DNA of 7,149 bases from a virus. Lineage: Duplodnaviria; Heunggongvirae; Uroviricota; Caudoviricetes. Location of the stretch: IMG/VR virus record IMGVR_UViG_2585427792_000017; one strand, 5' to 3'. Below the pieces are notes generated by a model, which had not been told where the DNA came from, made no database searches, and worked only from the letters and a program-made list of their open reading frames with translations. The translations under genes were made by a program, and so were the position numbers. Below, one piece after another: positions 5,120-7,149 of this stretch. How positions within the stretch are numbered: position 1 is the stretch's first letter; each line of letters begins with the position of its first letter.

Positions 5120-5641
5120 TTAGTTGCCTTCGCTGCTTTTGAGTCGTTCCAGCTTTGAGCTTCTACCCATATAAACCCGTTTTCCGTTAACGGTCTGGCA
5201 GTCTTCTTTGTCGGCTGGAGAGAACTTTCTTTTCTGGCGGTCATACGTCCAGTAACTTTTCCAGTTGTGCCATTCTGGGGGCTCGTGCTCTGGTAGCTCA
5301 TCAGCCAACTTGTCCCACTCTTTGGCGTTAAACCACCATACTCCGTCTGAGTTTTCATCTTCCGGGTTTGTGCGCGTCTTGTGTCCCGGCATTTGACCGC
5401 GATGAATGGCTACGCGCAGTGCAGATTTTGTTAGCCCAATATATGCCGCGCCTTTTTCCAGAGAGCAAAGCCCGGCGATCGGACCATCCAGCCGCAAAGT
5501 CGCTCCTTTTTTGTAGGAACGCTTTTTCTTGTTTTCTTCGTGCTCGTCGTCGTTGGCGGCATCAATGGATCCGCTGAGTGCGTCACTTTCCTGAAGTGGT
5601 TGGTGGTCAGATAACTCTTTATCGGCAATGAAGTCCCGCAT
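5120..5641 (-). CDS. cox: Cox-like excisionase/transcriptional regulator, 173 aa, with N- and C-terminal extensions
   Basis: ATG 5641..5639 with GAGG 7 nt upstream. The core (LEKGAAYIGLTKSALRVAIHRGQMPGHK...DGVWWFNAKEW) resembles the HTH and following region of P2 Cox as I recall it. It is the first gene of the operon divergent from C. Confidence 0.65.
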   Translation of the reverse strand: MRDFIADKELSDHQPLQESDALSGSIDAANDDEHEENKKKRSYKKGATLRLDGPIAGLCSLEKGAAYIGLTKSALRVAIHRGQMPGHKTRTNPEDENSDGVWWFNAKEWDKLADELPEHEPPEWHNWKSYWTYDRQKRKFSPADKEDCQTVNGKRVYMGRSSKLERLKSSEGN

Positions 5642-5660
5642 TTGTTATCCTCTTGCGTTG

Positions 5661-5700
5661 GTGCGCTTGTTGCGCCTTGTGATGGTTTGTTTTGGCTTGT
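5661..5700. repeat. Four direct repeats with 10-bp periodicity, each ending in TTGT
   Basis: GTGCGCTTGT / TGCGCCTTGT / GATGGTTTGT / TTTGGCTTGT, at 5661-5670, 5671-5680, 5681-5690, 5691-5700. Helical phasing suggests a protein array on one face of the DNA. Confidence 0.4.
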
Positions 5701-5724
5701 AAAGATAACCAAAAGGTTATCTTT
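5701..5724. promoter_or_regulatory. Candidate repressor operator: perfect 10-bp inverted repeat with 4-bp spacer
   Basis: AAAGATAACC-AAAA-GGTTATCTTT. Further GGTTATCTT copy at 5748-5756 (overlapping the C start codon) and a related TGTTATCCT at 5643-5651 next to the cox start. Confidence 0.45.
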
Positions 5725-5734
5725 GTGCGAGAGG

Positions 5735-5761
5735 TTAATACTCAAATGGTTATCTTGTCAA
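5735..5761 (-). promoter_or_regulatory. Candidate early promoter Pe (- strand)
   Basis: Perfect -35 TTGACA (reverse complement of 5756-5761) and -10-like TATTAA (reverse complement of 5735-5740). The spacer is only 15 bp, so this is tentative. The -35 overlaps one GGTTATCTT half-site and the palindrome lies just downstream. Confidence 0.3.
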
Positions 5762-6087
5762 TAGACTACGCAAAAAAGTTACGTCAGATACGTAAGGCGG
5801 AAGGGTTAACACAAAAGCAGTTTGCGGATATTACTGGGTTGTCTTTGGCAACCATAAGGAATTACGAATCGGGGCAAAAGAACGCTAGAGCAAAAATCGT
5901 TGAGGCGGTTCTGCAAGTCGATCGCTTTGAAAAATACATGCTGTGGCTAATAAAAGATAAGACGCTACCTGTCGCCGGGCAGATTGCTCCGGCTCTCTCT
6001 CTTGATGGATCTATTCAGTCGGAGGGCGATCAGGTTTCAATCGGTATTACCCAAAAATCACCCCGATCAGGCCGCAATGTTGGCTGA
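5746..6087 (+). CDS. C: Immunity repressor C (P2 C family), 113 aa
   Basis: The track ORF starts at TTG 5692. ATG 5746 (MVILSIDYAKKLRQIRKAEGLTQKQFADITGLSLATIRNYESGQ...GQIAPALS) aligns by eye with P2 C (HTH, YESG, GQIAPAL). GAGAGG lies 11 nt upstream. Confidence 0.75.
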   Translation: MVILSIDYAKKLRQIRKAEGLTQKQFADITGLSLATIRNYESGQKNARAKIVEAVLQVDRFEKYMLWLIKDKTLPVAGQIAPALSLDGSIQSEGDQVSIGITQKSPRSGRNVG

Positions 6088-6156
6088 CTCTACACATTGA
6101 GCGAATTACATATCGCAAGGAGTGTTTAGTTAATTTATCCGTTGGAGGGGCTAATC

Positions 6157-7149
6157 ATGTCGATTAAGCAACTCAAAGACGGACGTTATCAGGTCGATGT
6201 CAGACCGCAGGGGGCGGAAGGAAAGCGGATTCGAAAAATCTTTGCCCTGAAATCAAAGGCTCAGGAGTTTGAGAAGTATGTGTTACAGAACTTTCATGAC
6301 AAGCCATGGCAGGCTAAGCCAGCTGATCAGCGGCGATTATCAGAGCTGCTTGATGCGTGGTGGATGCTTGATGGGCGTAATCAGGCTTACGGGGATAGCT
6401 ACAGGGTTAGGCTAGGGAAGGTTGTTCGTGAAATGGGAGATCCTCGCGCCAGTCAGATGACGCGAAAATTTATGCTTGAATATCGGTCAGAGAAATTACA
6501 GGCCGGATTAATGCCGTCCAGTATTAATCGTGACTTATGCGTACTGTCTACCATGTTCACGGTGCTGATTGAAGCTGAGGTCTTTCACAACGCGAACCCT
6601 GTACGCGGTATACGAAAACTGAAAGTTCAGAACACAGAGATGGCCTTTCTTTCTGATGATGAGATTGAACGGCTTCTTGAGCGACTGGAGGGTGATGCGC
6701 GTCGTGTTGCCATTCTGTGTCTTTCTACTGGTGCCCGATGGAGTGAAGCATCGGAACTACGTGGAGAGCATATCGTTGGCAACCGGGTGACGTTCTTTAA
6801 CACCAAAAACGGAAAATCCCGTTCGGTTCCTGTGGCGGATTCGGTCGTGCCTCTGATTAAAACCCGTCGAACGGGGTTATTGTATCAGGTTGATTATCTG
6901 AAGTTCCGGGAGATTCTTCAGGAGGTGAAACCGGATTTGCCGAAGGGGCAGGCTACGCATGTCATGCGTCATACATTTGCCACACACTTTATGATGAATG
7001 GCGGAAATATTGTTACGTTGCAACGAATCCTGGGGCACGCAACGATTCAGCAAACAATGACGTACGCTCATTTTTCGCCGGACTTTTTACTGGACGCGAT
7101 CAACTTTAATCCGCTGGCTGAAAGTGTCCATAAACTGTCCATCGATTAG
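6157..7149 (+). CDS. int: Tyrosine recombinase, P2-type integrase, 330 aa
   Basis: The track ORF starts at TTG 6142. ATG 6157 has GGAGG 8 nt upstream. MSIKQLKDGRYQVDVRPQG..., TGARWSE, HVMRHTFATHF and TMTYAHF match the P2 Int pattern including the catalytic R, H-x-x-R and Y. Stop TAG 7147-7149. Confidence 0.9.
   Translation: MSIKQLKDGRYQVDVRPQGAEGKRIRKIFALKSKAQEFEKYVLQNFHDKPWQAKPADQRRLSELLDAWWMLDGRNQAYGDSYRVRLGKVVREMGDPRASQMTRKFMLEYRSEKLQAGLMPSSINRDLCVLSTMFTVLIEAEVFHNANPVRGIRKLKVQNTEMAFLSDDEIERLLERLEGDARRVAILCLSTGARWSEASELRGEHIVGNRVTFFNTKNGKSRSVPVADSVVPLIKTRRTGLLYQVDYLKFREILQEVKPDLPKGQATHVMRHTFATHFMMNGGNIVTLQRILGHATIQQTMTYAHFSPDFLLDAINFNPLAESVHKLSID

Follow-up and report, generated by a model that had tools for sequence, protein, structure and literature searches.

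The closest described relatives of the locus analysed here are the lysis/lysogeny switches of the P2-type phages. In the P2 annotation, the −35 hexamer TTGACA of the early promoter Pe overlaps the start codon of the immunity repressor gene C, and the operators O1 and O2 flank the Pe −10; in WPhi, 10-bp repeats lying 34 bp apart flank the Pe −10 (PMC1904268). Repressors of the P2 C family are described as binding, as a symmetric dimer, to non-palindromic direct repeats, a pairing that the authors called surprising, and C.Esp1396I-type controllers and the lambdoid repressors are noted as structural relatives of P2 C (PMC2995052). The boxes of P2 Cox are spaced at 10–11 bp and occur at both the lysogenic promoter Pc and attP (PMC3936717), and Apl of phage 186 is reported to sit between converging start sites. 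Among the immunity types, that of UTI89 PhiECO5 has tentatively been named immunity class IX (Nilsson et al. 2011, PMC3448106).

The window, by which we mean the whole 7,149-nt stretch of DNA analysed, carries the gene order cox ← → C–int found in annotated P2 and WPhi. The cox-like gene (5120..5641, minus strand) encodes a long, 173-aa Cox, the presumed lytic regulator and excisionase; the C immunity repressor gene (5746–6087, plus strand) encodes a 113-aa HTH_3 protein; and int (6157–7149, plus strand), in the same operon as C, encodes a tyrosine integrase with the Pfam domains Int_N and Phage_integrase. With the cox start codon at 5639–5641 (CAT on the plus strand) and the C ATG at 5746–5748, the cox–C intergenic region spans 104 bp (5642–5745), the length given in the original prediction.

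By tblastn, C is 50.6% identical to WPhi C and 35.5% identical to P2 C, and also aligned with the C of L-413C; phmmer matched residues 9–89 to the P2 C structures 2XCJ/2L49 (E = 1.1e-14), and Pfam HTH_3 was found in the protein. The cox product scores 31.3 bits against Pfam Phage_Cox (cut-off 27.5) over residues 58–129, matches the transcriptional regulator family PHROG 23196 (E = 2.6e-113), and has homologues carrying the RefSeq name 'Cox family DNA-binding protein'; a PDB sequence search with the window's Cox gave no match. By description, it fits the 'group 2' class of longer Cox proteins in Nilsson et al. (2011). Extensions flank the Phage_Cox core (58–129), an acidic N-terminal one of about 55 aa and a C-terminal one of about 45 aa. 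Full-length close homologues of this long form were found in the Escherichia group only, with weak matches in two other loci, and the Cox-box comparison described below was therefore confined to close relatives.

Because C belongs to the P2 C family, cox encodes a Phage_Cox domain and the gene order matches, we read the region as the probable lysis/lysogeny switch of a P2-type (Peduoviridae) E. coli prophage, and we put the probability of the explanation as a whole at about 0.72. A 186-type CI/Apl/CII switch was rejected: C has 113 aa and matches P2 C, not a two-domain CI (~190 aa), and the ORF directly downstream of cox lacks an HTH or CII-type family match. This kind of switch is already known; its immunity type here is uncharacterised and is sister to UTI89 class IX. 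P2-like E. coli phages and prophages, those of ST131 among them, carry near-identical DNA, which is present in 351 of 5426 complete genomes (~6%), and the prophage integration site lies upstream of dmsA. Farther along the leftward early region of the prophage, the Rfam models of C4 antisense RNA (81 bits) and of the Hfq-binding RNA isrK (62 bits) match the minus strand above their gathering scores, at 1572–1659 and 1695–1769, and correspond to a P1/P7-type antisense-RNA control module.

Proposed early promoter, candidate Pc and the phased TTGT array

Pe is assigned to the minus strand, with the −35 hexamer TTGACA at 5761..5756, inside C codons 4–6 (TGTCAA on the plus strand), and the −10 hexamer TAACCT at 5737..5732, separated by an 18-bp spacer. 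That TTGACA serves as the −35 of a leftward promoter had been proposed at the outset, and promoter geometry across the family argues for it. A survey in which one genome per species was scanned yielded 76 loci encoding C relatives, 45 of which carry an exact TGTCAA at or near the C start. Measured from TTGACA on the minus strand, TAnnnT follows at an 18-bp spacer in 29 of these 45 loci and at 17 bp in nine (38/45 at 17–18 bp), with any other spacing seen in at most four. The Pe −35 is invariant in the relatives, as are the TA and final T of the −10 in five close relatives; the −10 overlaps the C Shine–Dalgarno sequence GAGAGG (5729–5734). At the level of sequence, the arrangement is thus the P2-type one, with Pe on the strand opposite to C and a −35 that lies at, or close to, the start codon of C. 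A consensus sigma-70 scan of 5400–6200 returned no promoter; it missed Pe because of the weak −10, which agrees with the consensus at three of six positions and follows an 18-bp spacer. The better-looking −10 TATTAA (5740..5735, 15-bp spacer) was rejected, since TAnnnT at 15 bp occurs in none of the related loci versus 29/45 for 18 bp. On this assignment the Pe start would fall at about 5724–5726, and Pe would fire leftward into cox from near 5725. P2-type early promoters mostly have this 18-bp spacer (29/45), which houses O1 and exceeds the 17 bp that is optimal for sigma-70.

Pc was not located by the same scan, which gave no consensus match in 5400–6200. The sole −10 candidate is TATCCT (5647–5652, plus strand), whose −35 is poor and which overlaps the cox ribosome-binding site; it lies within a conserved element (5647..5653) that holds most of the GTTATC copy at 5644–5649. 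The cox Shine–Dalgarno complement TCCTCT (5648–5653; AGAGGA on the minus strand) is invariant in five relatives, and TA(T/C)CCT adjoins the cox start in many genera. The candidate is proposed by analogy with WPhi, in which a TACCCT hexamer stands 7 nt upstream of a Pc start that we deduced from two published values, an 82-nt overlap of the transcripts and a distance of 60 nt from O2. If the assignment of TATCCT as the Pc −10 is right, the putative Cox array described below would sit between converging start sites, as reported for 186 Apl. Other Pc candidates picked by eye, TTGTGA-17-TAAAGA, TTGTAA-15-TATCTT and an extended −10 at TGTGATGGT, were discarded as not conserved or too weak.

Four tandem 10-bp units ending in TTGT, GTGCGCTTGT / TGCGCCTTGT / GATGGTTTGT / TTTGGCTTGT, occupy 5661–5700 on the plus strand exactly as had been described, with TTGT at 5667, 5677, 5687 and 5697. 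Four TTGT at exact 10-bp spacing occur once in the window, both strands considered, and in none of 1000 window shuffles or 20000 intergenic shuffles; Tandem Repeats Finder scores the array weakly (score 30, 65% matches). The array lies in DNA common to PhiECO5/class IX, a stretch that ends at 5700, and so would be independent of C specificity. At 5671, the first base of unit 2, the window has T versus C in an E. albertii locus, phage 569R5 and E. coli G6/7.

We assign the array as candidate Cox boxes, probably correctly, on the strength of a match in the att arm, the precedent of P2 Cox and the phased repeats, lineage-specific in sequence, that adjoin cox in the majority of P2-type loci. With a position matrix derived from the four units, 7 kb of a near-identical phage was searched on both strands. 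The best non-self match (score ~20) is GTTAATTTGT-TCCCCCTGT-TTTGGCTTAT in the att arm, right after the int stop codon; the arm, TTATAATTTGTGTTAATTTGTTCCCCCTGTTTTGGCTTATTCG, lies just beyond the window and carries this TTGT-like array between two Int arm sites (TGTCCA twice) and the core. That level of score was reached at 2 of 784,691 positions in unrelated P2-type loci. The Int arm-type sites TGTCCA themselves (7125–7130 and 7136–7141) are 11 bp apart in the last int codons; TGTCCA is the complement of TGGACA, the core of the P2-type Int arm site (consensus tgTGGaCa; PMC3448106), and the window ends exactly at the int stop.

A different origin for the array, as curved T-rich phased DNA, as part of Pc or as the site of another architectural protein, is unlikely but deserves some weight. 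The repeat core is short and T-rich and its Tandem Repeats Finder score low, unit 2 lacks its TTGT in relatives, Pc must sit in or near the 5661–5700 stretch, and switch arrays cross-scored against att arms across four Cox variants gave no clear signal of co-evolution. The att-arm scores drop to 9–14 in relatives with diverged Cox. Against such an origin, an array sharing the 11-mer TTTTGGCTT(G/A)T is found again in the att arm, exactly at the place where a recombination directionality factor should act, and at the low background just given; phased repeats beside cox are general in P2-type switches, with sequences particular to each lineage; and P2 Cox and 186 Apl both offer precedents. The proposal that the phased repeats are Cox sites is accordingly retained for the repeats as candidates, through the att-arm match, and not for their position over Pc, which the array was supposed to cover and which was not located. 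On the Cox-box reading, Cox would probably oligomerise during lytic development on the four 10-bp-phased boxes (versus six or more in P2) between the converging promoters, would thereby silence C/int transcription from Pc, and would probably bind the similar att-arm array, directing excision.

Proposed operators of the C repressor

The palindrome AAAGATAACC-AAAA-GGTTATCTTT at 5701–5724, read directly from the sequence, is a perfect 10-4-10 repeat, and every other perfect inverted repeat in the window is shorter. Shuffling the whole window gave arms of at least 10 in 10 of 300 trials, and shuffling the intergenic region did so in 3 of 5000. The motif GTTATC occurs at 5644–5649, 5704–5709 (minus strand), 5716–5721 and 5749–5754. 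The palindrome and these four copies were all part of the original prediction and are all in place; a fifth copy, overlooked there, lies inside cox at 5610–5615 (minus strand, GATAAC on the plus strand). The window as a whole holds eight copies against 2.55 expected, five of them inside 5610–5754. One detail needs correcting: the last copy was said to overlap the C start codon and in fact abuts the ATG. It is the extended half-site GGTTATCTTG at 5748–5757 that overlaps both the ATG and the −35 hexamer (5756–5761 in plus-strand coordinates).

Two putative C sites can be delineated around the Pe −10. O2 is the palindrome itself, at about +2 to +25 of Pe. O1 (5734–5757) consists of the consensus arm GGTTATCTTG (5748–5757) and a degenerate arm (5734–5743), and fills the spacer between the Pe −35 and −10. 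The centres of O1 and O2 are 33 bp apart, or about three helical turns. A direct repeat (5705–5723 and 5738–5756) recurs at the same 33-bp spacing; on the minus strand, AAGATAACC(A/T)TTT is present twice, with 9 of 10 bases shared at offset 33. Four of seven positions agree between the left arm of O1 and the O2 arm. Direct-repeat offsets in the family survey cluster at 31–34 bp, and the locus shows, in its sequence, the P2-type trait of direct C half-site repeats that stand two to three helical turns apart and flank a Pe promoter element. A one-mismatch half-site, GGTTGTCTTT, is present inside C at 5837–5846, 122 bp from the right arm of O2, possibly by chance.

We propose that the three GTTATC copies at 5704, 5716 and 5749 belong to C operators because all three change jointly with C in relatives. 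Relatives whose C is 87–88% identical retain GATAACC-N4-GGTTATC with a variable 4-bp spacer (AAAA, GTAC, GAAA); the third copy is intact in OkiPb and carries two changes in DG342 (GAGTATC). Relatives whose C is 71–73% identical, a group that includes a C protein identical to that of UTI89 PhiECO5, carry CTTCACC-CTGT-GGTGAAG and GGTGAAC at the same three positions, and the recognition-helix segment differs between the two groups (GLSLATIRNYESG versus GVSVGTIGNYESG). Binding of a host factor to the palindrome was rejected, as the sequence changes with the phage's own C. C codons 2–6 (GTT ATC TTG TCA ATA) also make up the O1 arm and the −35 hexamer, and the N-terminal end of C therefore varies together with the operator. 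The assignment of the palindrome arms and the 5749–5754 copy to operators O2 and O1 flanking the Pe −10 thus appears largely right. The idea of a palindromic operator is supported for O2, with the qualification that the functional unit would be two sites 33 bp apart, as in WPhi, and the idea that the GTTATC copies are C half-sites holds for those at 5704, 5716 and 5749 and fails for the unchanged copy at 5644. In a lysogen, C dimers would bind O1 and O2 and shut Pe, giving superinfection immunity.

P2 C family repressors are regarded as binding non-palindromic half-sites (PMC2995052), and O2, a perfect 10-4-10 palindrome, lacks this hallmark. Perfect inverted repeats with arms of at least 7 occur in 18 of the 45 related loci, versus 2.5% when the window's 104-bp intergenic region is shuffled, and they mostly occupy the O2 position, in several relatives without a spacer. 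A Sodalis locus has the same 10-4-10 geometry in a different sequence, with a third copy over the C start. Our literature search found no paper reporting palindromic operators in the P2 C family. A palindromic operator would therefore be a modest departure within the family and gives no ground for exclusion from it, although a role for the left arm of O2 goes beyond the family precedent of direct-repeat binding and would not have been predicted from it.

The dyad could instead act mainly in RNA, as a 5′-end stem–loop stabilising the cox transcript or, in the C leader, as a hairpin that causes pausing or attenuation, with no protein operator at all; we consider this improbable. The 10-bp stem would fold in both transcripts (minus strand −12.2 kcal/mol, z = −4.8), and the changes between types preserve arm complementarity, as would likewise be expected of an RNA stem. 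A hairpin cannot, however, explain why the third copy, which is unpaired and lies at a distance of 33 bp, varies together with the arms, and palindromes without a spacer are typical of protein sites. The immunity block described below ties the operator sequences to the DNA-binding half of C, the family offers a precedent of repressor binding at exactly the same position, and the switch region gave no match to an Rfam family.

Nor do we give more than a very small chance to the suggestion that all five copies (5610, 5644, 5704, 5716 and 5749) are C sites, with the distal two as auxiliary operators like the distal 186 CI sites that would serve looping or block cox translation, for although the presence of five copies within 145 bp, when 2.55 are expected for the entire window, and the inverted arrangement of the distal two, 34 bp apart on either side of the cox start, speak for it, the distal copies persist in EC361 and in G6/7 (GCTATC at 5644), both of which have the GGTGAAG operator, and the copies lie in a cross-genus cox ribosome-binding motif and in conserved cox codons, respectively, at 5644 and 5610. 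As single operator candidates the two were rejected on the same grounds: GTTATC at 5644 is unchanged in relatives with an altered C operator and belongs to the cox ribosome-binding region AGAGGATAAC (minus strand), a motif conserved across genera, and GATAAC at 5610 is unchanged when the C operator changes. The pair, inverted and 34 bp apart about the cox start, is in itself a persistent feature of loci with different C operators.

Returning to C operators at O1 and O2, we offer a more specific and tentative reading, which we hold at slightly below even odds as one joint claim: the half-sites described for the P2 C family may really be one arm of a dimer-sized, dyad-symmetric site, of which this phage and many relatives would keep the undegraded form, with a symmetric C dimer on O2 and a second dimer on the half-degenerate O1 inside the promoter spacer. 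If true, this would resolve the long-standing paradox of a symmetric P2 C dimer on non-palindromic repeats and make a naturally symmetric operator available for a C–DNA co-structure. The survey suggests, moreover, that operators of palindromic form are common among repressors usually presented as the textbook case of direct-repeat binding.

A 288-bp block exchanged relative to UTI89 PhiECO5

The window is 97–100% identical to UTI89 PhiECO5 over ~5216–5700, and ~93% rising to 100% identical from 5976 to 6900; the intervening block, 5701–5988, is ~60% identical overall and 45–75% in 40-column windows. Its left junction, 5701, is the first base of the palindrome, and its right edge is C codon 81. 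Since the block begins and ends at these two points, we interpret the 288 bp (O2, Pe, O1 and C codons 1–81) as a self-contained immunity cassette that unites the two operators and Pe with the DNA-binding half of C. That the region would define immunity specificity, as originally suggested, is supported both by the joint change with C and by these exact boundaries. At the right edge, inside the C ORF, a terminator-like GC-rich hairpin is followed by TCTCTCTCTT (5974–5993).

In other respects the two phages are close: cox, the TTGT array, the C-terminal part of C, int and the site upstream of dmsA are near-identical, and the operator geometry is the same. They differ in the half-sites, GGTGAA(G/C) in PhiECO5 versus GGTTATC in the window, and in C. 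Immunity classes I–VII were reportedly defined by Karlsson et al. in 2006. Because its C is 73% identical to that of PhiECO5, below the 95% criterion within a class, we assign the window to a separate, unnamed immunity type, classes IV–VII standing outside the direct comparison.

The 288-bp block, in which specificity would reside, has been exchanged relative to UTI89 PhiECO5, the window type having arisen from, or given rise to, the UTI89 type by this cassette exchange. The block is the likely immunity determinant of a prophage found in ~6% of complete E. coli genomes, here delimited at base resolution, and the window/UTI89 pair would form a ready-made system for tests of heteroimmunity and repressor specificity.

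Comparison with known switches

Set beside the characterised P2-family operators, the locus has the layout of P2 and WPhi. P2 shares with it the gene order, the Pe −35 over the C start, operators O1 and O2 flanking the −10, and, if the array is read as Cox boxes, phased boxes at both the switch and the att site (at Pc and attP in P2, spaced at 10–11 bp). It differs in a C that is 35% identical, in 8-bp half-sites that are 22 bp apart and lack dyad symmetry, and in a Pc with a perfect TATAAT, absent from the window. The comparison of cox boxes gave no such agreement, the P2 consensus TTAAAG/CNCA being unrelated to the TTGT units.

P2 Hy dis, a natural P2 immunity hybrid, resembles the present case in that a block of repressor and operators has been exchanged in a near-identical backbone; its repressor and operators are different ones, and its half-sites flank the −35 at 26-bp spacing. 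More distantly, C.Esp1396I, P22 c2 and 434 cI are likewise small HTH dimers on dyad-symmetric sites, and C.Esp1396I places two dimers on tandem palindromes. These are not homologous switches and have no Cox partner, and the C.Esp1396I spacing is 15 bp, so that any likeness would be mechanistic only.

The nearest counterpart remains WPhi (immunity class III), which has the closest characterised C (50.6%). Its repeats (GTCACCAATA) are described as non-palindromic, in contrast to the perfect palindrome at O2, and it differs further in a 17-bp Pe spacer versus 18 bp, an intergenic region of 152 bp versus 104 bp, and a Cox of 90 aa versus 173 aa. In both phages, however, the Pe −35 TTGACA lies at the C start, with one repressor site in the spacer between −35 and −10 and a second downstream of +1, 34 bp apart in WPhi and 33 bp apart here.
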